From a virus, in IMG/VR virus record IMGVR_UViG_3300045988_173425, positions 36,970-100,969 of that record: DNA of 64,000 bases. One strand, given 5' to 3'. Below are positions 7,314 to 56,133 of this stretch, piece after piece. Made by a program: the position numbers and the translations under genes. Positions within the stretch are counted from its first letter, which is position 1. The number at the start of each line of letters is the position of its first letter. Under the pieces are notes generated by a model. It was not told the DNA's origin. It worked only from the letters and a program-made list of their open reading frames with translations, and made no database searches.

Positions 7314-7333
7314 GTTTTGTTGTGCGACGCGGT

Positions 7334-7368
7334 AACACCCGGAGGGATTTTCAGTCCCTTTGGGTGTT
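7334..7368 (+). promoter_or_regulatory. imperfect 14-bp hairpin between the putative terS and terL
   Basis: AACACCCGGAGGGA ... TCCCTTTGGGTGTT with two G-U pairs and no U-tract. Function unknown. Confidence 0.3.
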
Positions 7369-7389
7369 GCTATTAAAATGCCTTGACGT

Positions 7390-15345: not shown

Positions 15346-15660
15346 ATGGACCGATGGAAATATTTCAGAATAGGTGATGTCGTTGCAGACCCTGAAGTTT
15401 GGGGTCGGACGACGTTTGTAATACGCGCGTTTCACGGTAACGACTACTGCCCGTTAATTACTGGCGAGTCCCTAAAACCGATTCGCGGTCGCCGCATAAG
15501 GGTAAACCTCGGCGTCGGGGAGGTGCGACTTGTAAACGCTCCTAAACGTCCGTTGATGAAGGTTCCAGATGGTACGTTGGTGCGGTTGACTGGGAAGAGC
15601 GTTGAAGCGCGGCGAGAATTGTTAATTAGAAGCTATCGTAAACAGCATGGCGACCTTTGA
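15346..15660 (+). CDS. hypothetical protein (104 aa)
   Basis: ATG ORF preceded by a GCCAACGTTTT motif variant at 15328. Confidence 0.65.
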   Translation: MDRWKYFRIGDVVADPEVWGRTTFVIRAFHGNDYCPLITGESLKPIRGRRIRVNLGVGEVRLVNAPKRPLMKVPDGTLVRLTGKSVEARRELLIRSYRKQHGDL

Positions 15661-16657
15661 TAATTATGCGTGGGCAGATAAGCTACCTGACGAAACGCTG
15701 GACGTGAGCGAAGAGCACCGCTCGGAGTTCTTCAGAACGATGTTCGAGCGCCAGATGATATGGAAACGCCGCTTCTTGGATGGAGCGCCGCGCCCGTGGA
15801 CCGAAGACCCGATCTTAAGGGACTATAAGTTTACCAACGTATATCGCGAGTTAGACCGCAATTCGCAGTGGCAAATACGAAACATCATTCTCGATCCGCT
15901 ACTTTCGTTGACGAATTTGGTTTGGAAGACGATGGTGTTTCGGTACTTCAATAATCCTGCAACGTTCGAATTCGCTCAACAGCGATACGGTTGGAAGGCG
16001 GGAATTCCAGATTACGACCAATACGACGAAGACCGCTTCGCAGAGATGATAGCTGTGTACCGTGCGTCGGGAAACAACCCTTACACTACGGCGTATTTGA
16101 TCAATTCGATGGCCACGCCCGGTAAACCGCGCGACTACTGTTACACGCACTTGGTGGTTCCTACGTTACACCGGCGCTTGGGTGAGTTGATACGGACGGT
16201 ATTGGCGGCTGAAACTCCTGAACAGATCATCAGGTTTTTACGCACCCTGCCTTCATCGGCTACATTCATCGCTCACGAATTTTACCAAGACTTTACCTAC
16301 ATATCACGCTACACCACGCGTCGTTTCATGCGTTTTACTCAAGACGACTATACCAACGTAGGACCTGGCGCATCGATTGGGTTGCGGTTGATATTTCCGT
16401 CGTTGAAACGTCAGGTGGATGGAATATATCGCCTGCGTGACGAATCGCGTGACGAGTTGGCGAAGTTGGGTAATTTCCCATACCTACACTGGGACCGCGC
16501 CGGGTGGCGTTACCGCGTATCGCGCGTGGGAGAAATAACGCTTCATCAGGTGGAAATGTGGCTGTGCGAGTACCAAAAGTATTGGAAAATGCGTATTGGC
16601 GAAGGCAAGCAGCGTTCTACATTTGAACCTCAAACTCGTAAATTAGTGGGACAATGA
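15647..16657 (+). CDS. possible alpha-glutamyl/putrescinyl thymine pyrophosphorylase (aGPT-Pplase)-like protein
   Basis: N-terminal ERQMIWKRRFLDGAPRPWTEDPILRDYKFTNVYRELDRNSQW resembles my recollection of the family signature (PWT.DPIL..Y.F.NVYRE.DR). The protein is all-helical in character. Not verified by a search. Confidence 0.5.
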   Translation: MATFDNYAWADKLPDETLDVSEEHRSEFFRTMFERQMIWKRRFLDGAPRPWTEDPILRDYKFTNVYRELDRNSQWQIRNIILDPLLSLTNLVWKTMVFRYFNNPATFEFAQQRYGWKAGIPDYDQYDEDRFAEMIAVYRASGNNPYTTAYLINSMATPGKPRDYCYTHLVVPTLHRRLGELIRTVLAAETPEQIIRFLRTLPSSATFIAHEFYQDFTYISRYTTRRFMRFTQDDYTNVGPGASIGLRLIFPSLKRQVDGIYRLRDESRDELAKLGNFPYLHWDRAGWRYRVSRVGEITLHQVEMWLCEYQKYWKMRIGEGKQRSTFEPQTRKLVGQ

Positions 16658-17014: not shown

Positions 17015-18772
17015 ATGTCCGGTGTAAAAGAAAGATTGGAATCGGTGGAACGTGCCATGCAGGCTCTAACAATACGCAAGTCGCTGTTGGTAGAGCGTGC
17101 GTTGAGCAGCGACAACCCGTCCGATATACTCAAAGCCGCTGAAATATTCAATCAGCAATCCAAGCCTGCTAACGTTGCCCCGAAGGCGTACTTGATCGAT
17201 CCTTTGGAGTTCAATTCGTTTTTGGGGTATAAGGATAAGCCGTTTTCGCTCTCGTATGAGACACTGCGCCGGATGAGCCGCACCCCCATCATCAACTCAA
17301 TCCTCAAGACCCGTAAGAACCAAATAGCCGACTTCGCTGAACCGCAGGCCGATCGCTATTCTACAGGGTTCGTCATTCGTCGTAAACCGAAATTTGGTCA
17401 AGAGCAGAAGATGGATTCTCAAGACCGCAAGATTGCGGCCTCCATCACCGACTTCATTCTCAATTGCGGTGATACCGCCACTTGGGACGGCGACGAGTTT
17501 GACGAGTTTGTTCGTAAAATCGTTGACGACTCGTTGACGTTCGACCAGATGACGTTTGAGTGCATTCGTAACCGCCGCGGCAAACTGGTACGGTTTCAGG
17601 CCGTCGATGCTGCGACGTTCCGGTTGGCTGAATCGTACTTCGACGGTGAATACAACAACCCGTATTTTGACGGCGCTATGATGGATGACCGCCAAAACTG
17701 GGGTCCAAAGGTTGATGGCTATTATCCGGCCTACGTTCAGGTGTACCAAACAGCCAAGGTGGCGCAGTTCTATCCGTGGGAGTTGTGCTTCGGTATACGC
17801 AACCCGACCACGTCGATCTACGCCAACGGGTACGGAAACTCTGAATTGGAAGAACTGATTAACGTCGTTACATCGATGCTTTGGGGCGACGAATACAACC
17901 GCCGCTTCTTCTCTCAAGGATCAGCGCCGAAGGGTCTTCTTCGGATCAAGGGTAACGTCAACGAGGCTTCGCTTCAACAGTTCAAGCAGCAGTGGCAAGC
18001 CATGATATCAGGCGTTATGCAGTCGTGGAAGACGCCCGTCGTTGAGGGTGATATCGACTGGGTTGATCTCCAGAAGAACAACCGTGATATGGAGTACAAC
18101 TCGTGGATGGAGTACCTGATCAAGATCGCGTGTGCTGTATTCTGTATCGACCCGACGGAAATCGGGTGGGACATTTCCCGTTCCAACGGCAGCGGCCTGA
18201 CGTTCGGTGATGGCCAAAAGCAGCGCATGGAGCAGTCCAAAGACAAGGGTCTCTACCCGATGCTGAAGTTCATCCAGCGTAAACTCAACAAATTCATCGT
18301 CGAGCAAATCAACCCCGACTTCGAATTCGTATTCATGGGCCTCAACGGAATGACCATTTCCGAAGAGCTGGATATGGACATCAAACGCCTTCAGGCCTTC
18401 CAGACCGTGGACGAGATTCGCGAGAAGTGGGATCTCCCGGCTATTGGCGAAGAGAAGGGTGGCAACACCATCGAGAACTCAGTCATCCAACAGGCTCTCA
18501 GCGCCAAGCAGCAACAGCAACAGGCGATGGGTGACATGGGCGCCGGAGGCGGCAACCCGTTTGAAGAGGCTGCCGGTATGGGCGCTGAAGGCGTTCCGGG
18601 TGAAGAGCCCACTGGCGACGAAGGCGACGAAGGCCCCGAAGCGCAAGGCGGAAACCCGTTCGACCTTTACGCCGCTGGCGATGAAGAAGAAACTATGAAG
18701 GCTCGTGAAGCGAATCCGCTCGTGGCCGCATTCGACGAATACTTACAAAAAGCAATACACCATGACGAGTAA
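17015..18772 (+). CDS. portal protein
   Basis: 585 aa. The central region (YPWELCFGIRNP...GNSELEELINVVTSMLWGDEYNRRFFSQGSAPKGLLRIKG) has a portal-like pattern and the C-terminal tail is acidic. Size fits a portal in a phage with terL, MuF, protease and capsid genes. Confidence 0.7.
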   Translation: MSGVKERLESVERAMQALTIRKSLLVERALSSDNPSDILKAAEIFNQQSKPANVAPKAYLIDPLEFNSFLGYKDKPFSLSYETLRRMSRTPIINSILKTRKNQIADFAEPQADRYSTGFVIRRKPKFGQEQKMDSQDRKIAASITDFILNCGDTATWDGDEFDEFVRKIVDDSLTFDQMTFECIRNRRGKLVRFQAVDAATFRLAESYFDGEYNNPYFDGAMMDDRQNWGPKVDGYYPAYVQVYQTAKVAQFYPWELCFGIRNPTTSIYANGYGNSELEELINVVTSMLWGDEYNRRFFSQGSAPKGLLRIKGNVNEASLQQFKQQWQAMISGVMQSWKTPVVEGDIDWVDLQKNNRDMEYNSWMEYLIKIACAVFCIDPTEIGWDISRSNGSGLTFGDGQKQRMEQSKDKGLYPMLKFIQRKLNKFIVEQINPDFEFVFMGLNGMTISEELDMDIKRLQAFQTVDEIREKWDLPAIGEEKGGNTIENSVIQQALSAKQQQQQAMGDMGAGGGNPFEEAAGMGAEGVPGEEPTGDEGDEGPEAQGGNPFDLYAAGDEEETMKAREANPLVAAFDEYLQKAIHHDE

Positions 18773-22326: not shown

Positions 22327-22359
22327 TAGTGGAAATGAAACTTATAAACCGATAACGTT

Positions 22360-24123
22360 ATGAAAGAAATTATCAACTACGGCGAAGCGCGTCGCCAACA
22401 GATTCTCAAAGGATTCACCAACATCGACGAGGTCGCTGAAGAAGCGCCGATCGAAAAAGCGCGTCATGGCGTATACGCTGACAACGCCCAGAATCGTCGC
22501 CTCCAGCGCGTGGGACAGGAATACGGTCACGCCGCCAAAGAAGACCCTGAAGCAGGTCAAGAAGGCAACGAGGGTGTACCTGAAGGCAACGTGAGTCTCC
22601 AGAACCACGCTCGTCAGGCTTCCGAGGAGGCGCTGGTGAAAGTAGCCAACGACCCGTCGGCTGATGCCGAAATGCGCAAGGTGGCTACCGCTGAACTCGA
22701 ACGGCGCGGCGTGAACGTTCGTGCCAAGAACAAGAAGGGCGACCAGTCGCTGCGTAACGGTCTGGCTGACGGCGACGCCAAATCGGCTTCTACGTTTGAG
22801 TCGATGGGCTTCCGTCAAATGGACGACCGCGATCTGGAGCAGTACGCCGGAGTGGAGGACGCTTCTCACGCTTTCATCAAGCAGGTAGGTGGTGACGAGG
22901 ACGGCTTCGATCTGGTAGTTACCAAGACCAGCGAAGGATATCGCGTCGACAAATACCCCTACGCTGACGTGGACAACTTTGAGTCCGTGACGGTGAAGGA
23001 AATCGGCGACGTTGAAGGCGCTGCGTCGAAATTCGGCGATCCCGACGCTAAAGGAAAGGGTGGAAAGGCTGACGCCAAATCGCTCATCGACAGTTTCAAC
23101 GAAATGGCCGAGGGTAACGCTGACTTTGACGCCGAGTCGTTCAAATCCTTCGTCAAGGAAAAAGGCGGAAAGGCCGTGAAAGAACTGGCTGATGCTATTC
23201 GCAAGATGCCCAGCGAGGCTGGTCAGAGTGATCTCGCCGACGACGAAATTGTCGATATGATCGAGAATATGTTCGAGGAGGCCGACACGCGTGTACCCAA
23301 GGAAGCCAAGAAGGAACTCGACAACCTTCGTGGGTCGGGTGAAAGCGTTCTTGCCAAGTGGGACGCCTATACTTCGGAGTCGGGTGAAGACGATGACTTC
23401 GGCGCAGCGCTCGAAAGCCTCATCGACAACAAGGGCGAGGCCAAGGCCATCAAGGAACTGGCCGCAGCCATGAAAGCAAATCCGGTTGATACTGGCGGTG
23501 TTCAGTCCGACGCTACGGACGACGAAATTGCCGACACCATCGCCAATATGTTCGAGATGGCTGGCGTGAAGGTATCGAAGGACGGCCAGAAGGAACTCGA
23601 CGCGCTGATCGGCGGTGAGGAGGAAAGCGCCACCAAGCAAGGTAAGAAGGCCGATGCTGCCGCCAAGGCCGAAGTGAAGAGTGCCGAGAAGGGCAACAAA
23701 GCTACAAAGTCTTCGTCTGAGAAGGATAACGCTGCGGCCGATAAATTCATCAAGAAAACCGGCAGAGGGGCTGATCCGGCTGAGTATGCCAAGATGATCG
23801 CCAAGAACCCCGAAGGCATTGCCCGCGCTCTGAAAGCAAGGATCGCATCCGGCGACAAAGAGGCCCAGCGTGCTGCTTTGAGCCTCAATTCGCTTACCGA
23901 TCCGCAGTCGCGTGACAAGGGCGTCGGCCAAGAACTCCTCAGCCATCCTGAGTTGAAGAAAATCGCTGACGAGCGTCAGGCTGCGCGCGATTCGCTTCGC
24001 GGGGAGTATGATCCGGAAGAATACCGTAAGAAGGTTGACGCGCAAATCGAGGTAATGAAACGCACCAACAAGGAATTCGTTGACAAGTTCCTCGAAATCT
24101 ACGCCAGTAACACCGAAGAGTAA
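22360..24123 (+). CDS. highly charged (K/E/D/A-rich) protein with internal tandem repeat
   Basis: 587-aa ATG ORF. N-terminal GVYADNAQNRRLQRVGQEYG motif. Two ~70-aa repeats (see the repeat feature). Confidence 0.75.
   Translation: MKEIINYGEARRQQILKGFTNIDEVAEEAPIEKARHGVYADNAQNRRLQRVGQEYGHAAKEDPEAGQEGNEGVPEGNVSLQNHARQASEEALVKVANDPSADAEMRKVATAELERRGVNVRAKNKKGDQSLRNGLADGDAKSASTFESMGFRQMDDRDLEQYAGVEDASHAFIKQVGGDEDGFDLVVTKTSEGYRVDKYPYADVDNFESVTVKEIGDVEGAASKFGDPDAKGKGGKADAKSLIDSFNEMAEGNADFDAESFKSFVKEKGGKAVKELADAIRKMPSEAGQSDLADDEIVDMIENMFEEADTRVPKEAKKELDNLRGSGESVLAKWDAYTSESGEDDDFGAALESLIDNKGEAKAIKELAAAMKANPVDTGGVQSDATDDEIADTIANMFEMAGVKVSKDGQKELDALIGGEEESATKQGKKADAAAKAEVKSAEKGNKATKSSSEKDNAAADKFIKKTGRGADPAEYAKMIAKNPEGIARALKARIASGDKEAQRAALSLNSLTDPQSRDKGVGQELLSHPELKKIADERQAARDSLRGEYDPEEYRKKVDAQIEVMKRTNKEFVDKFLEIYASNTEE
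23125..23613 (+). repeat. protein-level tandem duplication (~70 aa x2) inside 22360-24123
   Basis: aa 256-326 FKSFVKEKGGKAVKELADAIRKMP...SDLADDEIVDMIENMFEEADTRVPKEAKKELDNLRG aligns with aa 347-418 LESLIDNKGEAKAIKELAAAMKANP...SDATDDEIADTIANMFEMAGVKVSKDGQKELDALIG. Confidence 0.8.
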
Positions 24124-24341
24124 TGCCCTACAACGCCAAACATACACACTTCCTTCCGTCGCCATTCCCCACCGTTACTCAATACGAGAACCAATTCATT
24201 AAGGAATGGAACGCCAATAACGCCGCGGCGCTCGGTGATGTCTTGAAGTACATCGCCGACGCTACGGCTGCGGCGGTTAAAGAACTAAACGAGGATGAAA
24301 CAAAGAAAGGCAATTTGGGCCATACCGTCAACGAAAATTGA
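24123..24341 (+). CDS. hypothetical protein (72 aa)
   Basis: TAATG overlap with the upstream stop. Confidence 0.55.
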   Translation: MPYNAKHTHFLPSPFPTVTQYENQFIKEWNANNAAALGDVLKYIADATAAAVKELNEDETKKGNLGHTVNEN

Positions 24342-25391: not shown

Positions 25392-26323
25392 TGATTTTTA
25401 ACAACCGCCAAATAGACGACATGGTCGGTATTCTCCGGCGTTGGCAGTATCTCTTTATTGCCAAACACGTCGGATTGGACTACCTTACGCAGTCTGAAAT
25501 TGATATCTTGGTAGCGTCGGGAGTCAACGTCGATAAGTACAAGAACTCAAAGGGTATCATCGAACACGCTTTTTTGTTTGGAATCTTGGCTGAAGCAATC
25601 GGTGACACACGCGCCAAGAAGATGAACTACAAGCAGTTTCTCCAGTTCTTGAAATCGGGGAACTTCGTTCCGCTCACCGAACAGGAAGAAAACGCGCTGA
25701 ACTACCTCAAGAACCGCGCCTATACCGACATCACGTCACTCGGCAACCGGATCGTCACCGGAACGCGCAACGCAGTACTCAAGTCGAACTTTCGCCAGCA
25801 ATCGGCAATACGTCAGCAAATCAAAGATAAGGCCATTCAAGCCGTTCAACTTCGTAAGGGAGCGCGGTATATAGCCAGCGAACTGGGGAACCTTACCCAA
25901 GACTGGGGACGCGATTGGCTGCGTATTGCGTATTACCTTCTCCACGAAGCCTACAATGTAGGTCGCGCTGAAAGTATTTTCAAGCAACACGGTCCTGATG
26001 CCAAGGTGTATTTCGACGTTTACCCCGGCGCGTGTGCTAAATGCCGCGAATTGTACTTGGAAGACCCTGAAGACCTCAACTCAAAGCCGAAACTGTTCCG
26101 CTTGGCAGACCTTATTGCCAACGGTAACAATATTGGACGCAAAGTGGCTGAATGGCTCCCGACGATTGACCCAACGCACCCCTACTGCCGGTGTACGATC
26201 AACTTCGTTCCTGACGGCTTCGAATGGGACCCCGCAACACGCGCCTTCACCAAGCCAGTTAAGCGTCAATTCAAGAACCCAAAGTTAAAGAACGTGAAAC
26301 TTAACATTAAAGTTACCAAATAA
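25391..26323 (+). CDS. MuF / SPP1 gp7-like minor head (head morphogenesis) protein
   Basis: The ATG at 25391 shares its A with the upstream TGA; the track start 25388 is TTG. Has CAKCRELY and the family-typical PTHPYCRCTINF near the C-terminus. Confidence 0.7.
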   Translation: MIFNNRQIDDMVGILRRWQYLFIAKHVGLDYLTQSEIDILVASGVNVDKYKNSKGIIEHAFLFGILAEAIGDTRAKKMNYKQFLQFLKSGNFVPLTEQEENALNYLKNRAYTDITSLGNRIVTGTRNAVLKSNFRQQSAIRQQIKDKAIQAVQLRKGARYIASELGNLTQDWGRDWLRIAYYLLHEAYNVGRAESIFKQHGPDAKVYFDVYPGACAKCRELYLEDPEDLNSKPKLFRLADLIANGNNIGRKVAEWLPTIDPTHPYCRCTINFVPDGFEWDPATRAFTKPVKRQFKNPKLKNVKLNIKVTK

Positions 26324-27282
26324 TGAAAAACAAAATCGTACAAGACCCCCCGTTTACCATGCAGATCGAGCCGACCGAGGGGTGCAATCTGGGGTGTTCG
26401 TTCTGTGGTCTTCACGGTATGCGCGAAAAAGGGACTAAACCGTGGAATTTCATGACCGTTGAAACCGCCGAGCGTATTGCTTCGGAGGTGGCACGCGTGG
26501 GGTGGAACTGTAAGTTCGTGTTCGCTATGCACGGCGAGCCGACGCTCAACCCCGCGTTCATCGACATCGTGGCTACGTTCCGCAAGCACTTGCCGAAGGC
26601 TGTGTTCCATATGTACAGCAACGGCTACGCCATGAACCACGCTGCTGACACGTCCGAGTACCTCGACCGCCTGTTCGAGGCCGGCATGAACGACATACTG
26701 GTAGACTGTTACACAGCCAACGGCGACTGGAACTTCGTCGAGAAGATCGACGTTGAAAAGTACAACGTCGTCACGCTGGAACCGGGCGTTCCGTACTACT
26801 ATCCCAAGCAGGGGCGCCGTATCTGCCTGCTGCCGCCTATCGCCGAAGACGATACCAACAAGATGACGCGTCGTCTGGCCAATCACTGCGGTGCAGCGTT
26901 CCCGCTCGACGATTCGTTCAACAACAAGCGCTGCACCTTCCCGTTCCGTGAACTGGATGTGCGCTGGAATGGCCAGGTGTGTCTGTGCTGTGACGACTTC
27001 CGCGGCGAATATCCTATCGCCAATATCCACGATATGCCTATCGAGGACCTTTGGAACCATCCGCGTTTCCACGCTGCTCGCGTTATGCTGTACAACAACG
27101 ACCGCCGCTTCCGGCCGTGTCAAGGGTGTACACACGTCAGCGTCCGCGTCGGATTCCTGCCTGACAAAATGGGCAAGAAAACGCTGCCGCCTATTACGCC
27201 TGAAATTCGCCGCATGGCTGAAGACGTGTCGAAGGACGGCCCGTGTGCTGAGAAGATTTACAAACGGCCATGGGAAAAATAA
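26323..27282 (+). CDS. radical SAM enzyme with extra C-terminal Cys-rich (SPASM/twitch-like) region
   Basis: CNLGCSFC (CxxxCxxC) at aa 21-28. C-terminal CTFPF...NGQVCLCCDDF...RPCQGC. TAATG overlap with the MuF-like gene. Confidence 0.8.
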   Translation: MKNKIVQDPPFTMQIEPTEGCNLGCSFCGLHGMREKGTKPWNFMTVETAERIASEVARVGWNCKFVFAMHGEPTLNPAFIDIVATFRKHLPKAVFHMYSNGYAMNHAADTSEYLDRLFEAGMNDILVDCYTANGDWNFVEKIDVEKYNVVTLEPGVPYYYPKQGRRICLLPPIAEDDTNKMTRRLANHCGAAFPLDDSFNNKRCTFPFRELDVRWNGQVCLCCDDFRGEYPIANIHDMPIEDLWNHPRFHAARVMLYNNDRRFRPCQGCTHVSVRVGFLPDKMGKKTLPPITPEIRRMAEDVSKDGPCAEKIYKRPWEK

Positions 27283-27950
27283 AGTACCTCTGTGTCGAGC
27301 CGCACGCGGGTGATCTCCTGATGAGCGCTTGTCACGTTTTAGTAGCACCCGAACGTCGTATTCGGGTGCTTACTGTTGATAACACGCCATCGCCGCTCGC
27401 TGAACAGCGTAAATTGTACGATTTTCTGGGAATCGGCGTGGACTGTCTGGACTTGGAGTTAGAAGATGTCCGTTGTAGCGATTTCAAGACCCATTACAGG
27501 GATTATAGCTATGAAAGCGTCTATATGTACCTTCGTACTAAATTCGGGACTGATGGGCTTAATTTCGCCGAACAAACGCTTCGTGATTATTTGCGTAAGT
27601 TTATGCGCCGCAACCCCGGATACACCCTGTTAGCGCCGTTGGGTGCAGGCAATCCCTTCAACCAGTTTGTACACGATACGGTGTATGATACGGCATCCGG
27701 GGCGGAATATTATCGCGACTTTCCGTATTCGTACACGCGCCGCGGCTGTAGCCAGATTCAAGTCCAGTGCTACGGTAGCGAAAGTTTGTTGATGAAACGC
27801 CGCGTTGATGTTGGTGATATGTTCGACGTTAAGTGGGAACTGGCGCTGCGCTTTTATCCGTCGTTAGAGCCTACGATGAACAAATATCAACGTTTTATAG
27901 AACAAAACCCACCCGAGGAAATTTGGTACGAGGGTGACTTACCGTTTTGA
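27270..27950 (+). CDS. hypothetical protein with weak LmbE/PIG-L-like pattern
   Basis: N-terminal strand plus LCVEPHAGDLL (compare the family motif AHPDDE; the His and the i+3 Asp are kept) and a later QFVHD. Overlaps the radical SAM gene by 13 nt. Confidence 0.3.
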   Translation: MGKIKYLCVEPHAGDLLMSACHVLVAPERRIRVLTVDNTPSPLAEQRKLYDFLGIGVDCLDLELEDVRCSDFKTHYRDYSYESVYMYLRTKFGTDGLNFAEQTLRDYLRKFMRRNPGYTLLAPLGAGNPFNQFVHDTVYDTASGAEYYRDFPYSYTRRGCSQIQVQCYGSESLLMKRRVDVGDMFDVKWELALRFYPSLEPTMNKYQRFIEQNPPEEIWYEGDLPF

Positions 27951-27952
27951 GT

Positions 27953-28756
27953 ATGAATTGTCAATTCTTCGTCGTGTCCAAGAACCGTCCTAAATGCGTC
28001 ACGACCAAACTTCTGAAAAAGGGCGGCGTCGACTATCACATCGTAGTCGAGAAAGAAGACGTCGAGAAATACGTCGAAGCGGGTCACGAGCGTGAACGCC
28101 TTATCGTGCTGCCGGCATCGAATCGTGGCTACAGCTATGTAGTCAATTTCTGTAAGAACACCTACCTGCGCGAGGGGCGTCCAGTAGTGGTCATGGATGA
28201 CGATATCGCCAATTTCTTCTACTCTATTGACGGTGAAGCAAAATGCGGGCTTTCGTTGAAAACCCCTGAAGAGTTGGCTGAATTCTTCGAAGAGTTCAAC
28301 CGCGAAGTCATGGAAACAGACTTCGAGTACGGGACCATGGGGAAGAGCGCGTTTGACTGGAACTGCACCGACGTCAGTCCTCGCTTCAAATACGGTGGCA
28401 TCCCTCATCTCATCGTGTTCAAAGGCTTACGCACGCTGGAACTGGATTTTGACGAAAAGTTGGAGTTAAAGTGTGATATCGACTATTCGTTGAAGTGCAT
28501 GTACCTCGGTATCGTATACGCACGGTTCGTACGCTTTCTTCTCCAGAGTAAGATGAACAAGGAAGCCACCCAAGGCGGCGGTCTTCAGGACGTATACAAG
28601 CGTCAAGAGCGTGTACAGCGTGCTCACGATATTATCTTGAAGCGTTGGCCGCTTAACGCTCGTGTTGACGAAAAGAAGAAACCCATAAACGGCGTTCCGG
28701 AGTTGCGTATTGTGTACAAGAAGTTTGATATTGACTTTGACGCTGTAGAAGTGTAG
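27953..28756 (+). CDS. GT-A-like protein, paralog of 10127-10942
   Basis: ATG at 27953 (the track start 27947 is TTG). FFVVSKNR, DxD-like VVMDDD, later KCDIDY and QGGG..DVY, in the same order as in 10127-10942. Confidence 0.35.
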   Translation: MNCQFFVVSKNRPKCVTTKLLKKGGVDYHIVVEKEDVEKYVEAGHERERLIVLPASNRGYSYVVNFCKNTYLREGRPVVVMDDDIANFFYSIDGEAKCGLSLKTPEELAEFFEEFNREVMETDFEYGTMGKSAFDWNCTDVSPRFKYGGIPHLIVFKGLRTLELDFDEKLELKCDIDYSLKCMYLGIVYARFVRFLLQSKMNKEATQGGGLQDVYKRQERVQRAHDIILKRWPLNARVDEKKKPINGVPELRIVYKKFDIDFDAVEV

Positions 28757-33887: not shown

Positions 33888-35648
33888 ATGCCTACTTTTA
33901 TTGACATGTCTGCGTTGACGCTGAAGTCTTCGGCCAGCGGACAAGAAGAAATTCAGGTTTCTGAGTCCAACAAGATCAACACAAGCCAGATTGCGGCGTT
34001 GACGTTTTCGCAAGATCCGTCGCTTGGCAATTTGCCCATTTCCAGCAATTTTACATACGGCAATAGCAAGGTAAAACTTTGGAATATGCTCAGACTACTG
34101 ACCGCAGCGGCGAATATCGGACGTCTGCGTATCGTGTCAGGGAATCCCGCGTCAGGCGCATCAGGAAAACCTGAAATGGCGTTTATTGTCAATATACTCC
34201 AAGGAACGAACGCCGAAACCGGAGGCACGAACGGTCTCCAAATTTTCCATCTTACCAACGATTATATTCGCGTCATTCCTTCGTCCAGTGTTGCTATGGC
34301 ATGGTCTACACTCCAGACTCTGACCGACGAAGCAATCATCACGAAACTGCACTCGACCGCTTCTGGCGATTGGGGTGGTCTGGGTGTAACGATGGAGTGG
34401 GCCGGAAGCGGCGGCAGCGCCATGAAATATCTGACGGTTACTGATTTTACCCGCAACACTTTCAGTAATGGCGCGATTGGTGATCTCGCCGTTGGTGAGA
34501 TGTTCACGTTTACAAGCGCCGTTGACGCCGCTAACGGACCCGGTGCGGCTTTGGTAGGTTATGCTGTAAAAGTTTCTGCTTTGTCGGTTAAATATGTCGG
34601 CACTTCTACCTCAATCAATACTTATAGCCGCTCATATCTGTATACTTACCAGTCTACGAGTATTTACAATACGAACTGGTCTATTGTTGGCACCCCCACG
34701 GGAATCGAAGCCTCGGTGTACGAATTCACATACGGCGAAAGTGAAGGCGTGCCCACTGCCGATTTGAAATTCGTCAAGGTTGCCGATATCTTCCGTATGA
34801 TATTCAGTACCCCCGATCAGGCAGACTACGGTCAATTAGATTTTATCCGGTCTCAAGACAACGATAAAACCGATCAATATGTCTTCGTCTGTCCTTCGGT
34901 AGACACCGGCTCGACGTATGGCGGTACGCTACAGCGCATCGCTGTTGACGCAACAACCGGAGCCGTGGATATGACGGGAGTAAGTCTTGCTATTGCAAAC
35001 CAGCCAGCAACAACAATACGGGTGACTAACTTCAACGCCCCTACGAATAATATTATAAAACAGTTGGCCACAGGTCAAGGAGTGATCATATGTACAGCAG
35101 GCTCAACAGTTGGAGGACCTTCAGGCGTTACTGCGCCTTTATACGGTCATTGCTTCAGGAGTTCATCAGGACCTATTATTTACACCTATCTGCTTCAAAC
35201 GGCTGATGGTAGCCGTACTTTCTCTGGCTCGACGAACGGAACTACTGCTCAATGGACAGAACTTGGTGGCGGCGGAGCAGGAGTCGAGCAACTTTTCAGT
35301 GGCGATATTGCGTTAGCTAATGCAGCACCCGAAACATTCAATCTCGGCGGAGAGGTAAGCGACGGCGACCGCCTTATGATTGTTTATAACTTTATATCGA
35401 GCGATCATACCATGATCGGAAGCAAACAAGGACGGAGCATAATTTGGGTCAGCACCAGCGGCACTGAAGACCTAACCGTAGAAGCGCTTAATTACAATAC
35501 CCAAGGAGACGTTACGAGGTTAGTTGGCTTTAATCTGATGTTGTCGGCTTCGGGAAGCATACTCAATATGGAAGCGACAGGAGATGTTGACACAGTCATT
35601 GAGGCTTTCCATGTCGTAGGTATATACAGGCTATCTAAATCGCTGTAA
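33888..35648 (+). CDS. fibre-like / receptor-binding-type structural protein with switchable C-terminus (current orientation)
   Basis: 586 aa, rich in Ser/Thr/Gly/Ala. The last 123 aa follow the 63-bp inverted repeat (35215-35277). Ends ...VVGIYRLSKSL. The structural role is inferred, not proven. Confidence 0.75.
   Translation: MPTFIDMSALTLKSSASGQEEIQVSESNKINTSQIAALTFSQDPSLGNLPISSNFTYGNSKVKLWNMLRLLTAAANIGRLRIVSGNPASGASGKPEMAFIVNILQGTNAETGGTNGLQIFHLTNDYIRVIPSSSVAMAWSTLQTLTDEAIITKLHSTASGDWGGLGVTMEWAGSGGSAMKYLTVTDFTRNTFSNGAIGDLAVGEMFTFTSAVDAANGPGAALVGYAVKVSALSVKYVGTSTSINTYSRSYLYTYQSTSIYNTNWSIVGTPTGIEASVYEFTYGESEGVPTADLKFVKVADIFRMIFSTPDQADYGQLDFIRSQDNDKTDQYVFVCPSVDTGSTYGGTLQRIAVDATTGAVDMTGVSLAIANQPATTIRVTNFNAPTNNIIKQLATGQGVIICTAGSTVGGPSGVTAPLYGHCFRSSSGPIIYTYLLQTADGSRTFSGSTNGTTAQWTELGGGGAGVEQLFSGDIALANAAPETFNLGGEVSDGDRLMIVYNFISSDHTMIGSKQGRSIIWVSTSGTEDLTVEALNYNTQGDVTRLVGFNLMLSASGSILNMEATGDVDTVIEAFHVVGIYRLSKSL
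35215..35277. repeat. left arm of a perfect 63-bp inverted repeat
   Basis: GTACTTTCTCTGGCTCGACGAACGGAACTACTGCTCAATGGACAGAACTTGGTGGCGGCGGAG is the exact reverse complement of 36412-36474. The flanking bases differ on both sides. Confidence 0.97.
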
Positions 35649-36411
35649 GTAAAAGCCCCTCGAAATGAGGGGCTCTTCTATTAATTAGCCTTGAAATATA
35701 TCCCTTTTATTTGGATAATATCCGATACGTCTGACAAGTTGTTCGATTGCACGACAACGTTCATGCCTTGAACGCCGTTGGCTCCGGTGATAACCGACGA
35801 ACAGATAAGTTTGATAGAACCCGGAACCGAGTTACTACCCAGATATGTCGAGCATATCTCAAACAATACCCCTTGTCCGGTTCCATTAATAGCCGCGACC
35901 GTGAGAGGCACCGGGAACTTAATAGCAGCCGTTGCAGCAGGGCTGGACTGGATGGTCGCTTCGATAAGTATTTTCGCGGTGGTAGGTATCTCCTGATTGA
36001 AATTAATAACCCCACTCGTTCCGGATGGTCCTACGGCACTACTCCACGAACTTACAATCCGTTTCCAGCCGGGGAAGATTTCACTTGAGCCGCTCGATGA
36101 TAAATCGTACTTTTTCTCTTCTAAGACATCCCCTGCGCTGTTCAACAGTATTTGATACCAGATGCCCGAAAGGAAATTATCCTCCTGAAAGACATTAAGG
36201 GTTACCACATAACCGTCGTCGGAGGAAATAGTACCGTCGTCTACCTTTTGAACATTTCCGACCAAAGTACAATTCGATGGGACATCCGCAGGTAATCCAG
36301 CTACTCCCGCCGGGTCGTATATGATGACAGGATAAATTTGCCCTAACTCCTTCCATGTAACAGAAGTGACGGCTTTGGAGATGCTTTCGGCATCCGAGAT
36401 CATGATGACGC
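35278..36411. other. putative invertible segment (1134 bp) carrying two alternative C-terminal cassettes
   Basis: Bounded by the 63-bp inverted repeat. Contains the 3' end of 33888-35648, a bidirectional hairpin terminator, and the body of the only minus-strand ORF. Confidence 0.6.
35654..35674. terminator. bidirectional terminator hairpin between the convergent cassettes
   Basis: AGCCCCTC-GAAAT-GAGGGGCT, flanked by A-run/T-rich sequence on both sides. Lies 6 nt after the + stop and 7 nt after the - stop. Confidence 0.7.
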
Positions 36412-36490
36412 CTCCGCCGCCACCAAGTTCTGTCCATTGAGCAGTAGTTCCGTTCGTCGAGCCAGAGAAAGTACCAACGCGATTCGCCAT
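35681..36490 (-). CDS. alternative C-terminal cassette of the fibre-like protein (also has its own ATG; 269 aa)
   Basis: The only minus-strand gene. Residues 6-27 (GTFSGSTNGTTAQWTELGGGG) are encoded by the right repeat arm in the same codon phase as in 33888-35648. Ends ...IQIKGIYFKAN, similar to the + cassette end. Confidence 0.7.
   Translation of the reverse strand: MANRVGTFSGSTNGTTAQWTELGGGGGVIMISDAESISKAVTSVTWKELGQIYPVIIYDPAGVAGLPADVPSNCTLVGNVQKVDDGTISSDDGYVVTLNVFQEDNFLSGIWYQILLNSAGDVLEEKKYDLSSSGSSEIFPGWKRIVSSWSSAVGPSGTSGVINFNQEIPTTAKILIEATIQSSPAATAAIKFPVPLTVAAINGTGQGVLFEICSTYLGSNSVPGSIKLICSSVITGANGVQGMNVVVQSNNLSDVSDIIQIKGIYFKAN
36412..36474. repeat. right arm of a perfect 63-bp inverted repeat
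   Basis: Exact reverse complement of 35215-35277. Confidence 0.97.
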
Positions 36491-36526
36491 TACAAGTATA
36501 ACGGTGGTAACAATAGTGCCGTAAAC

Positions 36527-38071
36527 ATGTTTAAGGACGATAAATTCAATTTTTGGTGCCCTATCGAGCCCATAAAGAAGGCTACCGACGAGGAAACAGG
36601 CGAACCTGTTATGCGCATCGGCGGTATTGCTTCAACCGTCGATCAGGATGCTGACGGCGAAACACTCGATCCGTCAGGCTTCGACATCCAGCCCTTGAAG
36701 GAGTCGGGAATGGTCAACTGGCACCATCAGGCCAAGAACTCGCCTGCAGCAATCATCGGCGAACCATCGAAAGTAGAACTGCGCCCCGAGGGTCTTTGGA
36801 TCGAGAGTGATTTGTACGCTTCGTCACCTATGGCTAATGAGGTATATGAGTTAGCCAAAACTCTCGAAGAAAACAGCAAGACACGCCGCTTGGGATATTC
36901 CATCGAAGGCAAGGTTATAAAACGTGCTTCCAACGACAAGAAATCACCCTTATACAACAAGATCGTGAAGGCGGTGATTACAGGCGTTGCTGTAACACAC
37001 ATGCCGAAGAACCCTCACACGTTCGTCAACATCATCAAAGGTCAGGTTGACGCCGATGGTATTGAGGTAGATTTAGAAGAGGAGGACGATAACGCTGAAG
37101 AGCGTGGCGGCAAGACCGAAAAGAAGGCTTTAACTACTGAATCCGGCGCAGCGCTTATGCCTGAATCCGTAGACGGCCAACCGAAGAAAACGTTTTCAAA
37201 ATCTTCCGTCATGGAATGTATCTTCCGCGACATTCCAAATATTACAATACCGAACGCCCAAGAATTGTATACTTTAATCAAAAATATATCGGTTATGAAC
37301 AAACGCAAATCCATCACTTCCGAGGACATCGAGAAGGCATATGACGCTCTGGGGCTTGCTCCTGAGAAGAAAGCCGACAATGCCGAGGACGTGCAGAAGG
37401 GCGATGACGCTGATGGCCAGATGGGGAAGGAAGACGAAACCCACGACGACGAGCCGCGTCACAACGCCGCTAACGCAAAGAACGCCGTTGCAGGCAAGAA
37501 GGAAGAATCTGAGGAAGAGACCGAGGACGACGACGAGGGTTTCGAGGAGTGCGACAAGAACGGCGCCAAGATGAAGAAGGGTGCCGATAACGACATCCTG
37601 AAGGCTATTCATGGTGTTGGAGACGAATTCAAGTCGTACATTCGCGCTACTGCCGTACTGGTGAACGATCTTCGTCAGAAACGCGCTGAAGACGCTAAAC
37701 GTATCGGCGAACTCGAAAACATCATCAAGGGTCAGACCGAGATCATCGAGGGCTTCTCCACCAAATTGGAGCGCTACGGCAGCGAGGTTCCGCGGCCGAA
37801 GTCGCTGCGTTCGGCTACGGTGGTTGATCGTGCCTTCGCGAAGGGAAACGCCGACAACGGTATCGAGAAGGGCGGTAGCGCCACTCGCATTTCGTTGCGT
37901 GAAAACCCGAAAGCCGTTGCGTCGCTGCTCGACCAGGCATCGTTCGCCAAGGGCTACGACAAGGAGTACGGCGATGCGCTTTTGGCGTTTGAGGCACGCC
38001 CCGCTGACGGTCTCCCCAAGAACATTATCGCTCGCCTCAAGGCTGAAACCGGGTACGAGGTAGTAGAGTAA
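36527..38071 (+). CDS. prohead protease (HK97/S78-like) fused to a scaffold-like C-terminal region
   Basis: Start moved to ATG 36527; the track start 36437 is TTG inside the repeat arm. GGIASTVDQDADGETLDPSGF, VNWHHQ (His), LGYSIEGK (Ser). The C-terminal ~330 aa are charged and coiled-coil-like. Immediately precedes the capsid gene. Confidence 0.7.
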   Translation: MFKDDKFNFWCPIEPIKKATDEETGEPVMRIGGIASTVDQDADGETLDPSGFDIQPLKESGMVNWHHQAKNSPAAIIGEPSKVELRPEGLWIESDLYASSPMANEVYELAKTLEENSKTRRLGYSIEGKVIKRASNDKKSPLYNKIVKAVITGVAVTHMPKNPHTFVNIIKGQVDADGIEVDLEEEDDNAEERGGKTEKKALTTESGAALMPESVDGQPKKTFSKSSVMECIFRDIPNITIPNAQELYTLIKNISVMNKRKSITSEDIEKAYDALGLAPEKKADNAEDVQKGDDADGQMGKEDETHDDEPRHNAANAKNAVAGKKEESEEETEDDDEGFEECDKNGAKMKKGADNDILKAIHGVGDEFKSYIRATAVLVNDLRQKRAEDAKRIGELENIIKGQTEIIEGFSTKLERYGSEVPRPKSLRSATVVDRAFAKGNADNGIEKGGSATRISLRENPKAVASLLDQASFAKGYDKEYGDALLAFEARPADGLPKNIIARLKAETGYEVVE

Positions 38072-38109
38072 ACACCCAAACAATTTCCTAACATAATCAA
38101 TTCCAAATC

Positions 38110-39597
38110 ATGGACAGACTTTCTATCAATCTCGCCGACTATGGCATCCAAGCGCGTGGTGCCCAGTACGGCTCGTCCAGTCAGGAAGAGGTCGCTGCGC
38201 TGAACAAAGCCCTCGAAGCAACCGACATCACGGGTCGCCAGACGACGAACCTGACCGATGCCTCGGGTGCTCCGCTGAAGGTGGAGTCGCTGGAGCGTAC
38301 TCTGAAACATCTGACGTTCCGCGAGAGCGACATCGTTCTCTGGAAGAACCTGCCGAAAAAGGCCGCTTACAACACCGTTGAGGAGTACAACCAGCTGGCA
38401 TCGTACGGTGCTGACCGCGGTGGCTTCACCAACGAAGGCGAACTCCCCGACGAGGAAGACTCGATCTACATCCGTCGGGCTCAGCTCGTGAAGTATCTCG
38501 GCGTTACGAAGTCGGTTACGCACCAGATGACCCTCGTCAACACGATGGTGGGCAACATCATGGAGCGCACCATCAAGGACGGCACGCTGTGGATTCTCCG
38601 CAAACTGAACAAGTCGCTGTACTACGGCAACTCGGACATCATCCCGCAGGAGTTCAACGGTCTACTCGCCCAGCAACTGCAGTCTGACGCGTGGAGCGGT
38701 CTGGACGCCTACCTCAATTCGGAGAACGTCATCGACCTTCGCGGTCGCGGCCTGACGGAGGACCCCATCGAGACGGCGGCCAACTCGATCGTCGAGAACT
38801 ACGGCCTCGGCACGGAACTATACGCTCCCCCCGCCGTTCTGTCGGACTTCGTCAAGACGTTCTACGGCAACAAGTTCATCCAGCCCAACACCGCCCAGAC
38901 CAGCGCTGGTATCATGGGTCAGCGCGTTCAGGCCTTCGACTCGCAGTTCGGCCGCATCGGTCTGAATTACGACGTCTTCTTCAAGAAGGCTGCGTTCAAG
39001 GTCGCTGGTGCCCAGTCGACGCATCCCAAGTCGCCTGCCGCTCCCACGTGGGACGCTACCACCCCGGCTGCTGTCGTAGCTGACGTGTCGACCTCGAAGT
39101 TCACTTCGGAGGACGCCGGCAACTACATCTACGCTATCGCCGCCATCAACCGCCACGGCGAGTCGTCGCTGGTGGTCAACGAGACTCCGGTAGCCGTGAC
39201 GGCAGGTTCGGTCGTCGACCTCAAGTTCTCGATCGTGGACAACGCTCACCCGGCTACGGGTTATCGTATCTACCGTTCGAAGAAGGGTGGCGACAAGAAC
39301 AGCAAACTGTACCCGATCTTCGACATCTCGGTGGCTCAGCTGAAACTGGGCTACGCAGGCGCTGCCGGCGACCTGTGCCGCGACAACAACTACTTCCTGC
39401 CCGACTGCGATCAGGCCTTCCTGGTACAGTTCGACAACGAGGTGATTGAGTTCGCCCAGCTGGCCCCGCTGATGAAGATGGACCTGGCGATTCTGTCGCC
39501 TGCGTACCGCTTCATGGTGCTGCTGTACGGTACGCCGTTCCTGTACGCGCCGAAGAAACTGGTTCGTCTGATCAACATCGGACGCGCCGCCAACTAA
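38110..39597 (+). CDS. major capsid protein
   Basis: 495-aa ORF directly after the protease/scaffold, with strongly biased codon use and a strong terminator after it. Assignment rests mainly on synteny. Confidence 0.7.
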   Translation: MDRLSINLADYGIQARGAQYGSSSQEEVAALNKALEATDITGRQTTNLTDASGAPLKVESLERTLKHLTFRESDIVLWKNLPKKAAYNTVEEYNQLASYGADRGGFTNEGELPDEEDSIYIRRAQLVKYLGVTKSVTHQMTLVNTMVGNIMERTIKDGTLWILRKLNKSLYYGNSDIIPQEFNGLLAQQLQSDAWSGLDAYLNSENVIDLRGRGLTEDPIETAANSIVENYGLGTELYAPPAVLSDFVKTFYGNKFIQPNTAQTSAGIMGQRVQAFDSQFGRIGLNYDVFFKKAAFKVAGAQSTHPKSPAAPTWDATTPAAVVADVSTSKFTSEDAGNYIYAIAAINRHGESSLVVNETPVAVTAGSVVDLKFSIVDNAHPATGYRIYRSKKGGDKNSKLYPIFDISVAQLKLGYAGAAGDLCRDNNYFLPDCDQAFLVQFDNEVIEFAQLAPLMKMDLAILSPAYRFMVLLYGTPFLYAPKKLVRLINIGRAAN

Positions 39598-53872: not shown

Positions 53873-54874
53873 ATGTTGATACCTGAATACATAATCCGCT
53901 TTTCGAACGTCACGAAATATCGCCTGACGGAGTTCTTGGAACGGTATCAAGACTTCTTCGACAACGACTATGCATCCATAGACCAGTATTTTTCCGGTCT
54001 CAGCGAAAGCGTCGATCACGATCGTTTGCGCCGCCTTCAAAAACTTCTCGGCGATTGCCGCGAACTTCAGGCCCAGTTCAAGAACTACAGTAACCGCTTT
54101 GATAACTGCGGCTATTGGCTGCTGATGGAGTGGATAGACGATCTTATCATACAGGTGGAAAAGGTCATGAAGTTACCCAAGTTCCGCCGCACCACGCTTA
54201 CGGCTCGTAACTACAAGCCTGTAATTCAGGTCGAGTCTACTATTGGCGCACAACGTACCATGGAGGACTTGTCGTTTGCTATCCAGTCTAACGGCATGGA
54301 CCGCGTTTCATGGGAGCAACTGATGTTGGATAATGACCTTGAAGAAGACCAGTGGGAAATCGACGAACTGAAGCCTGTTACTGCCATGGTGAATAATATC
54401 ACTCCGGCTGCTGTGACGACTATTCTCGAACCGCCCGTCGGCGAACAGGTCTACGGCAAGGACATCGCGCGTAAAATTACGATCGAGGTTGAAGAAGAAG
54501 TGGAAACAAAGGCCGATTTCAGGCGATCTGGCGACCGAACGTCGGTTATATCGGCCCGGCGTATAGGTGACCTGAAAATCGCGAAATACAAGGATAATAT
54601 CGACCAAAAGGTGATGATCCTCATGGGACTAAACCGCGGAACGGTTCCTGATAATCCGTTACTGGGCGTTGACGCTAACCTCACCGCAGGCGTCACGGCG
54701 GCCCAGCTGTCATTACCCACGGTTCGACGCCAGATGGTCGATACGTTCCTTCAAGACGACCTGTTTGAATCGGTAGACATGACAGCCGTTGAACAGAACC
54801 AAGACTCGTTGGTTTGTACGCTTGAAATTAAGACGAAGTACAACGACAAAGTGACCAAAAAAGTGAAGCTATGA
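53873..54874 (+). CDS. hypothetical baseplate-region protein (333 aa)
   Basis: Start set at ATG 53873, 2 nt after the upstream stop; the track start 53846 is GTG. Confidence 0.65.
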   Translation: MLIPEYIIRFSNVTKYRLTEFLERYQDFFDNDYASIDQYFSGLSESVDHDRLRRLQKLLGDCRELQAQFKNYSNRFDNCGYWLLMEWIDDLIIQVEKVMKLPKFRRTTLTARNYKPVIQVESTIGAQRTMEDLSFAIQSNGMDRVSWEQLMLDNDLEEDQWEIDELKPVTAMVNNITPAAVTTILEPPVGEQVYGKDIARKITIEVEEEVETKADFRRSGDRTSVISARRIGDLKIAKYKDNIDQKVMILMGLNRGTVPDNPLLGVDANLTAGVTAAQLSLPTVRRQMVDTFLQDDLFESVDMTAVEQNQDSLVCTLEIKTKYNDKVTKKVKL

Positions 54875-56133
54875 TAACGCAAATAACGCCAATAGAGGAA
54901 CTCAAGCAGATGTGGCTTGAAATATTCCTGAATAAAACCGATAAGATATCTGACGTGTCAGCTGAGTCGGTTTTGAATGCCATGGCCTACGCCGATTCCA
55001 AAATCGGCCAGAAGATCATGGTCAATCAGGCCGTTATCGAAGGTCATATCTTCCCTGACACCGCCGCAGGCGAATACCTCGACGCGCTGGCTGCGTTACG
55101 AGGCGTTGCACCACGATTCGAAGCCGCTCCCGCTACGACCTACGTTCGCGTGATTGGCGATCCGGGCACGTTCTATCAGGCAGGCACGATGTTCACCTCA
55201 ACGACCGGGTTAACGTTCGTTTCCACGGAAGACGCGACTATTGGCGGCGTCGATGAAAATACAGGGCGTGTGGTTGTAAATTCACGGTTGGCGTATATCC
55301 CAGTTCGGTGTACGAAGTCCGGCGCTACTACCAACGTGCCTCCGCTGTCGTTGAATCGTGTTAATCCTACACCGCCGGGACATCAAAGTTGCACCAACGA
55401 ATATCAGGCCACTGGTGGGCGCGATAAGGAAGATGACGAAACGTTCCGCGTCCGTATCAAGGAAAGTGTCAACCAATTGGCAATGAACACTCTGTCGCAG
55501 TTGGAGCAGGTACTGATGAAAATCAACCCACGTGTTCTTCGAGTGTTGAAAGGCGGGTATGGCGAATCGCAAACTACAGGTTCTGCCGCTGAAAGCCGTA
55601 TCAACCTCACGGTGGTTTCAGTCAACGGCCAGAACTTCACTCAAGAAGAGTTTGACGAAATGTATTCCCGCGCCGAAGAGTATTTGTGTCTTACCGACCT
55701 GTTGCGCGTTTCTATCGCCGGAGCGCGTTATCCGGCTATCAACCTGCGTAACGTGAACTGGCTTGCGGTCAACGTCGACTTCCGTGTTGATATCGACCCG
55801 GCCTACAACACGGACGACGTTCGTACCCAGATTCAACTTCAAATGAACAAACTGTTCGACTATCGTTTCTGGAAACCGGGCGACAAGGTTGAATGGGAAG
55901 ATATGCTGTATGTCGTCAAGAACGTCGAGGGTGTGCGCTACGTTCCCGATACACACTTCAACCCCAGCTACGATATTAACGTTCCGGAATACACGTTACC
56001 TCGTGTACGGAGTTTCGTGATGCGCGATTTGGACGGTAACGTGATAATCGACAACAACGGAGTTCTTTCTGAAGTGTTCTACCCTAACGTCGAAGACTCA
56101 AACTACCAAGCAACCGTGTTAATGTCTATCTGA
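54871..56133 (+). CDS. baseplate J-like (wedge) protein
   Basis: 420 aa. The N-terminal region ...AESVLNAMAYADSKIG....IFPDTAAGEYLDALAALRGV resembles the Baseplate_J pattern. Position fits. Confidence 0.55.
   Translation: MITQITPIEELKQMWLEIFLNKTDKISDVSAESVLNAMAYADSKIGQKIMVNQAVIEGHIFPDTAAGEYLDALAALRGVAPRFEAAPATTYVRVIGDPGTFYQAGTMFTSTTGLTFVSTEDATIGGVDENTGRVVVNSRLAYIPVRCTKSGATTNVPPLSLNRVNPTPPGHQSCTNEYQATGGRDKEDDETFRVRIKESVNQLAMNTLSQLEQVLMKINPRVLRVLKGGYGESQTTGSAAESRINLTVVSVNGQNFTQEEFDEMYSRAEEYLCLTDLLRVSIAGARYPAINLRNVNWLAVNVDFRVDIDPAYNTDDVRTQIQLQMNKLFDYRFWKPGDKVEWEDMLYVVKNVEGVRYVPDTHFNPSYDINVPEYTLPRVRSFVMRDLDGNVIIDNNGVLSEVFYPNVEDSNYQATVLMSI

Follow-up and report, generated by a model that had tools for sequence, protein, structure and literature searches.

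A few temperate enterobacterial phages provide the textbook cases of invertible tail-fibre switches, and there a dedicated invertase is needed for the switch. In the Mu G, P1 C, e14 P and p15B Min segments, served by the serine invertases Gin, Cin, Pin and Min, the constant N-terminal portion of a virion fibre gene is continued in frame by either of two C-terminal cassettes of opposite orientation, the inversion taking place between inverted repeats and the promoter lying outside the segment. Here, we describe a locus of the same layout in a stretch of viral DNA of 64,000 nucleotides (nt), positions 36,970 to 100,969 of the IMG/VR record IMGVR_UViG_3300045988_173425, hereafter the window. Two exact inverted copies of a 63-nt coding sequence bracket a segment of 1134 base pairs (bp) that carries, on opposite strands, the present C-terminal tip of a 586-amino-acid (aa) protein and an alternative to it. 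Judging from the assembled sequences of relatives, at least two cassette pairs occur naturally in both orientations, and the segment very probably inverts in nature. An earlier note on this DNA had seen in the locus the logic of the Mu G and P1 C switches without a recognisable invertase, and the comparison of relatives bears this out.

Other described systems share parts of this design. Tetart, Desplats and Krisch are said to have reported in 1998 that T-even adhesins are swapped by recombination between conserved motifs in gp37/gp38. There, as proposed here, short conserved coding motifs are the points of homologous recombination and a UvsX-type system is encoded by the phage; T-even exchange takes place between co-infecting genomes, whereas here both alternatives are held in one genome and the exchange would be intramolecular and reversible. 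Herpesvirus and plastid genomes are known to flip-flop by long inverted repeats. The nearest recombinase-free precedent that we found is of this kind, the isomerism of a 30-kb invertible region between repeats of 400–700 bp in Anabaena cyanophages (bioRxiv 10.64898/2026.02.14.705889). As in our case, close relatives show both orientations with no phylogenetic pattern, a dedicated recombinase is not evident and general recombination has been proposed, but the repeats of long-repeat isomerism are 6–10 times longer, flip tens of kb and leave coding sequence unaltered, whereas the coding arms described here, of 56–66 nt among relatives, would re-splice a single gene. Gene-altering programmed inversions have also been surveyed in bacterial genomes, with tail-fibre cases in prophages and with Mpi, Tsr0667 and integrases enriched near the predicted loci (Milman et al. 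2023, PMC9881135). Those inversions resemble ours in having a repeat within coding sequence, a partial and oppositely oriented paralogous 3' cassette, and surface proteins that determine specificity; they differ in that ours lies in a free lytic phage genome in which no site-specific recombinase was detected. No description of the present module was found in the literature searched.

The left arm (35215-35277) is the exact reverse complement of the right arm (36412-36474), and apart from this 63-nt pair the 64 kb of the window hold no inverted repeat of 28 nt or longer, which excludes a chance origin. Complementarity of a lower grade runs outward to 35173 and 36516 (105 nt at 83%). Beyond the exact arms, 35173-35214 is about 55% matched to 36475-36516 over ~40 nt, which suggests a duplication that was formerly longer and of which this degenerate extension is probably a remnant. 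The outer edge of the arm itself (GTACTTTCTC...) is invariant across all relatives that carry the module. The arms lie within two open reading frames (ORFs), the expressed gene on the plus strand (33888-35648, 586 aa) and a silent ORF on the minus strand (35681-36490, 269 aa). Both arms encode TFSGSTNGTTAQWTELGGGG in frame and start at codon position 2 of their ORF (CGT/ACT on the plus strand, GGT/ACT on the minus strand). The expressed gene consists of constant residues 1-443, repeat-encoded residues 444-463 and cassette A, residues 464-586 (35278-35648, plus strand; 123 aa, AGVEQLF...GIYRLSKSL), which is the present tip. The silent ORF has its own ATG and a leader, MANRVG (36475-36490, minus strand), kept in all module-carrying relatives, and it ends in cassette B (35681-36411, minus strand; 243 aa, GVIMISDAES...IKGIYFKAN). 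Cassette B is predicted to form two all-beta domains, B1 of ~100 aa and the distal B2 of ~140 aa, and the protein that it encodes has no significant similarity to that of cassette A (BLASTP E 0.35).

Inversion of 35278-36411, which comprises cassette A, a terminator-like hairpin and cassette B, is predicted to give an in-frame product of 443 constant, 20 repeat-encoded and 243 further residues, so that the first 463 residues would stay as they are and carry the 243-aa tip instead of the present one of 123 aa. The hairpin (35654-35674) stands between the convergent cassettes and appears bidirectional. It has 9 bp by pattern scan and 8 bp in an RNA fold of 35640-35690 (-18.3 kcal/mol, z -3.5). 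An A-run borders it at one end and a T-rich stretch at the other, and an equivalent is found in relatives. Being part of the segment, it would serve as terminator for either cassette, depending on which one is expressed. The repeat, the two ORFs with their common codon phase, the start codon of the silent ORF and the hairpin had all been described in the earlier note, and each was confirmed.

A search of IMG/VR seeded with the 586-aa protein gave 33 loci, and a degenerate 47-nt arm pattern was found in 7 stretches of metagenome contigs; an exact 60-nt arm had no match in IMG/VR, as the arms are polymorphic. The module, with exact arms of 56–66 nt, the same outer edge and a spacing of ~0.8–1.1 kb between the arms, is present in L002, L006, L007, L021, L156, L157, L158, L161 and L164. 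Orientations were compared between consensus contigs from different samples. For the pair of A with a further cassette, C, the first orientation is represented by L002 (A expressed, C silent) and the flipped one by L006, L021 and L161 (C expressed, A silent). For the pair A and B2, L158 has A expressed and B2 silent, while L007, L156, L157 and L164 have B2 expressed and A silent. Between L002 and L006 the segment is 97.9% identical when flipped and 50% in the same orientation, with arms at 100% and flanks at 87–90%; between L164 and L158 the corresponding figures are 93% and 48%, each genome having its own exact arm pair of 66 nt, with flanks at 81–82%. The in-frame exchange of C-termini proposed in the earlier note thus finds support in the A/C and A/B2 pairs.

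Cassette A occupies the silent slot in L006, L007, L020, L021, L156, L157, L161 and L164, and B2 is the expressed tip in L007, L151, L156, L157, L163 and L164. Copies of A from the two slots are closely similar: the expressed A of the window is 97.4% identical to the silent A of L020, the expressed A of L158 is 99.5% identical to the silent A of L156, and the expressed A of L002 is 96.6% identical to the silent A of L006. Expressed-slot and silent-slot sequences of A interleave in at least three lineages, which requires at least three independent changes of orientation, and orientation is mixed within cassette lineages. No protein fusing the constant part to the full cassette B (706 aa) is on record among the homologues; the pair in the window itself is thus known in one orientation only, and of its cassette B just the B2 part has turned up in the expressed slot. 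A decayed version of the module is found in L012, which is nearest to the window at either end, where arms at 7325-7385 and 8198-8258 differ by 3 mismatches, with a longest exact run of 21 nt, and enclose two other cassettes; this locus may be a locked derivative of the switch.

The arms are identical within each of eight genomes and fall into five allele sets between genomes. They therefore evolve in concert, a pattern that requires gene conversion between them. Arm length varies from 56 to 66 nt, the arms ending where the cassettes diverge, and no internal dyad of at least 5 nt was found in the arm. Concerted alleles, variable length, the lack of a dyad and of gix or Mpi motifs, and the absence of co-variation between the module and any neighbouring gene fit homologous recombination better than a fixed-site enzyme. 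Homologous recombination across the arms is in our view the likeliest cause of inversion, with a chance of about even. In outline, the promoter-proximal gene encodes the constant 443-aa body, ending in a beta-hairpin and Gly4 linker supplied by the left arm, while the second, inverted copy of the arm heads an alternative tip that is promoter-distal and oppositely oriented. Recombination between the arms would flip the segment and fuse the body in frame to the other tip, and the central hairpin, common to both versions, would terminate either. The flipping would be done by a phage RecA/UvsX-like recombinase with an Mre11/Rad50-like nuclease and helicases, with no dedicated invertase, and the tips would be ligand- or receptor-binding domains, such that flipping changes what the virion binds. 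The protein family is, moreover, highly mosaic at its Gly-rich linkers. In the natural mosaic and deletion variants P0014, P0018 and P0022 the constant body passes into a tip at other Gly-rich positions, as in a combination of body residues 1-170, B1 and the tip of module-free relatives; they show frequent recombination at linkers.

About 58 ORFs in the window, namely two on the minus strand and those of at least ~120 aa in the plus-strand gene set, were scanned with Pfam without any match to a serine or tyrosine recombinase or to a transposase, in agreement with the earlier note, which had recognised no invertase there. The other 36 kb of the genome were read from module-carrying relatives, contig 158973 (L035, L082) and contig 145915 (L038, L120), and in these, too, no site-specific recombinase or transposase was found by Pfam. 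Resolvase, Recombinase and Phage_integrase gave no match at E ≤ 0.01 in either set. The general recombination machinery that flip-flop by homologous recombination calls for is found in the relatives, which encode a RecA-like protein (PF00154, E 2e-13; L082:1109-2272), Metallophos/Mre11-like and SbcC/Rad50-like proteins and a UvrD helicase, together with DnaB, a primase and a split DnaE, a set that resembles the recombination and replication toolkit of T4.

The locus thus shares with the serine-invertase switches a segment bounded by inverted repeats that gives alternative in-frame C-termini, while neither an encoded invertase nor 26-bp sites of the gix/cix/hix type were found. Unlike the Mu G and P1 C type, it has no invertase gene detected next to it or elsewhere in the phage genome; its arms lack a dyad and, as the earlier note had held, any resemblance to gix (the gix sequence has no match at up to 3 mismatches in the window); its cassettes come without tail-fibre-assembly (U/U') genes; it adjoins head genes; and its phage appears virulent, since no integrase was detected. 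A shufflon, with Rci and multiple sfx repeats, finds no counterpart, as there was no Phage_integrase match and just one repeat pair in the window. A diversity-generating retroelement was considered because relatives carry an Mtd_N domain, and rejected, there being no reverse transcriptase domain in the scanned ORFs and no direct repeat involving the gene.

Several observations weigh against a phage-driven, receptor-switching role for the module. The RecA-like and nuclease genes were found in close relatives (94–100% aa identity at linking genes), outside the window. Arms of 56–66 nt are short for efficient homologous recombination; homologous recombination in T4 needs ~50 bp. The invariant outer arm edge could equally mark the fixed crossover site of a host enzyme, Pfam may miss a novel recombinase among the many unannotated ORFs, and the silent ORF, with its own conserved ATG, might be expressed separately. 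The 586-aa protein has no Pfam, PHROG or PDB sequence match, its full-length AlphaFold2 (AF2) model is poor, with a predicted local distance difference test (pLDDT) score of 52, and a Foldseek search of the PDB with the cassette B model gave no significant match (best E 3e-3).

Among the other explanations the most serious, though we consider it clearly less likely than homologous recombination, is that a host-encoded site-specific invertase, such as a serine recombinase of the Bacteroidales Mpi type or a tyrosine recombinase of the Tsr type, flips the segment in trans, the phage thereby exploiting phase-variation enzymes of its host. The failure of Pfam to find an invertase in the window and in the relatives' 36 kb is what this explanation would predict, as is an outer arm edge that does not vary among genomes. 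The arm has no internal dyad, however, and the presumed Mpi consensus (ARACGTWCGT) has no match in the arms at up to 1 mismatch and is about as frequent in the window as expected by chance (34 found, 26 expected). Moreover, the concerted evolution of whole arms needs gene conversion, which exchange at a fixed site does not supply. Global invertases with many distant target sites are known from Bacteroidales (PMC4747536). A search of genome contigs with P0027 gave no match and hence no lead to a host or prophage.

It is distinctly improbable, in our view, that there is no ongoing programmed switching at all, the inverted copy being a stored or relic cassette, the inversions rare evolutionary accidents and the minus-strand ORF perhaps an independent small protein. 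The conserved ATG and MANRVG leader of the silent ORF would suit such a protein, the arms of L012 have decayed to a longest exact run of 21 nt, the silent cassette is wholly missing in many relatives (L009-L011, L017), and most database proteins, by a large margin, have cassette A as their expressed tip. Relic copies, however, would hardly keep their arms perfectly identical in at least eight genomes despite divergence between the genomes, and against mere accidents stand the three or more independent orientation changes within cassette A lineages and a central terminator placed to serve both orientations.

Catalysis by an unrecognised phage recombinase among the unannotated ORFs seems less probable again: over half of the ORFs are without a match in Pfam or PHROG, which leaves room for one, but Pfam usually detects the known serine and tyrosine recombinase folds. 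Nor does any gene nearby co-vary with the module, since those of 138, 174 and 794 aa, like the protease gene, are found in module-carrying and module-free relatives alike. That the opposite orientations are assembly artefacts of the repeat is scarcely credible, for although some flipped contigs are low-coverage SPAdes NODE contigs with a k-mer length (k) possibly below the arm length, A/B2 is found in both orientations in MEGAHIT contigs at k = 141 (L158) and k = 127 (L164) and flipped A/C at k = 109 (L161, MEGAHIT), all of which exceed the arms of 61–66 nt so that these orientations cannot be artefacts, an identical flipped protein, P0141, is present on four contigs, and the flanks of flipped genomes differ by 10–19% from those of their counterparts, which marks them as different strains. 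Short Logan contigs (L159, L160) were rejected as evidence of mixed orientation, because a 60-nt repeat or a hairpin would break low-k contigs anyway; the k of the Logan assembly is presumably ~31.

The furthest-reaching reading of the locus, to which we give somewhat less than even odds, is that of a programmed and reversible host-range or adhesion switch without a dedicated recombinase in a virulent lineage, in which a coding inverted repeat of ~60 nt is kept perfect by gene conversion and flipped by a UvsX/RecA-type system of the phage, and in which the silent slot serves as a library of tips traded among unrelated gut phage families, namely this myovirus group, a ~63-kb phage group and crAss-like phages. 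If this is true, an abundant lytic gut phage obtains from a short coding repeat and general recombination the same bet-hedging as the invertase-dependent switches provide. Such switches would escape searches based on recombinases and could be widespread in viromes, and they would help to explain how lytic Bacteroidales phages persist against phase-variable host surfaces. Phages of dual receptor specificity could also be engineered on this compact design, and the conserved beta-hairpin and Gly4 linker offer a natural splice point for tip swaps between very different phages.

The protein itself has 678 homologues, one of which (P0038, on a contig of 100,969 bp) is 100% identical to it. It may be a surface adhesin, a fibre or another receptor binder; a role in receptor binding and a place on the virion, be it the tail or, in view of the neighbouring protease and capsid genes, the head, are inferred, as no family was detected and the full-length model is poor. 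In the AF2 model, strands at 444-449 and 454-460 are followed by a low-confidence linker, and the arm-encoded residues are accordingly modelled as a beta-hairpin with a flexible Gly4 linker. The cassette B ORF is better predicted (pLDDT 76). Its weak Foldseek matches include the adenovirus fibre knob and concanavalin A (E ~0.01–0.03, template modelling score < 0.2), and in BFVD the model finds uncharacterised relatives only, among them proteins of the crAss-like phages cr111_1 and cr108_1. Both B1 and B2 recur at the C-termini of proteins with the Mtd_N tail-fibre N-terminal domain, which, like the all-beta fold predicted for cassette B, speaks indirectly for a binding tip.

A hypothetical protein of cr111_1 (MT774387.1; L001 2765-4600) is 59% identical to the 586-aa protein, cassette A included. 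This identity with a crAss-like podovirus, together with the BFVD link to cr108_1, indicates gene transfer between unrelated phage families. In the ~63-kb phage group (L003, L004, L005, L008, L013, L014) a ~710-aa version with a longer N-terminus occurs, and a convergent minus-strand ORF of fibre-like character lies downstream, with B2-like or other tips and a different joining motif, IIYQITGSSG; scans of five loci of this group (L003, L005, L008, L013, L014) detected no inverted repeat. Sharing among crAss-like and ~63-kb phages is typical of host-recognition modules.

The window belongs to a ~100-kb SPO1-like myovirus of the human gut, its related contigs, each of ~100 kb, coming from human gut metagenomes. 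The genome, of which the window covers 64 kb, is ~100.5 kb and apparently circularly permuted, and the host is probably in the Bacteroidales. As the earlier note had placed it, the locus stands beside the head module: a head maturation protease/scaffold gene (36518-38071, plus strand; PHROG 1028, E 1e-34) begins 43 nt past the right arm and is followed by the major capsid protein gene (38110-39597, plus strand; Pfam SU10_MCP), whose product is 49% identical to those of the Bacteroides thetaiotaomicron phages DAC16-23 and SJC03 and ~39% identical to those of SPO1-like Bacillus phages. Pfam also identified a portal gene (17015-18772), a baseplate J protein gene (54871-56133), an M23 peptidase and two exonucleases. 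Among cultured or named phages a DNA match was found for the crAss-like cr111_1 only. A crAss-like identity of the window was nonetheless rejected, since the baseplate J, portal and SPO1-like capsid genes are those of a myovirus related to the Bacteroides phages DAC and SJC03.

The portal gene sits ~18 kb upstream of the protease and capsid genes (36518-39597), an unusual split of the head module, with genes for DNA modification and large ORFs that lack annotation (583 and 794 aa) in between. A DNA-hypermodification set at 10127-10942, 15647-16657, 26323-27282 and 27947-28756 comprises a 5-hydroxymethyldeoxyuridine (5-hmdU) DNA kinase, two TET-associated glycosyltransferases and a radical SAM/SPASM protein, to which relatives add a thymidylate-synthase-like gene (L120:1535-2761); the phage DNA therefore probably contains hypermodified thymidine. 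Homing elements also appear to be plentiful in this genome, as indicated by its inteins and homing endonucleases. A 905-aa ORF (7390-10107) holds an intein (Hint domain) with a LAGLIDADG homing endonuclease in an extein without Pfam match. In relatives, the region of L120 2763-7365 and 8967-9734 encodes a split DnaE-type polymerase, the second part of which carries an intein with an HNH endonuclease, and a SegE-like GIY-YIG endonuclease.

Genes lie almost all on the plus strand, and the claim of the earlier note that the silent ORF is the sole minus-strand gene is plausible, with the reservation that a 607-aa ORF on the minus strand (22342-24165) mirrors a 587-aa ORF on the plus strand (22360-24123). 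Both of these are ATG-initiated and without Pfam match, and the same region contains a direct repeat of 84 nt (23239-23322 and 23518-23601) whose copies are 76% identical.

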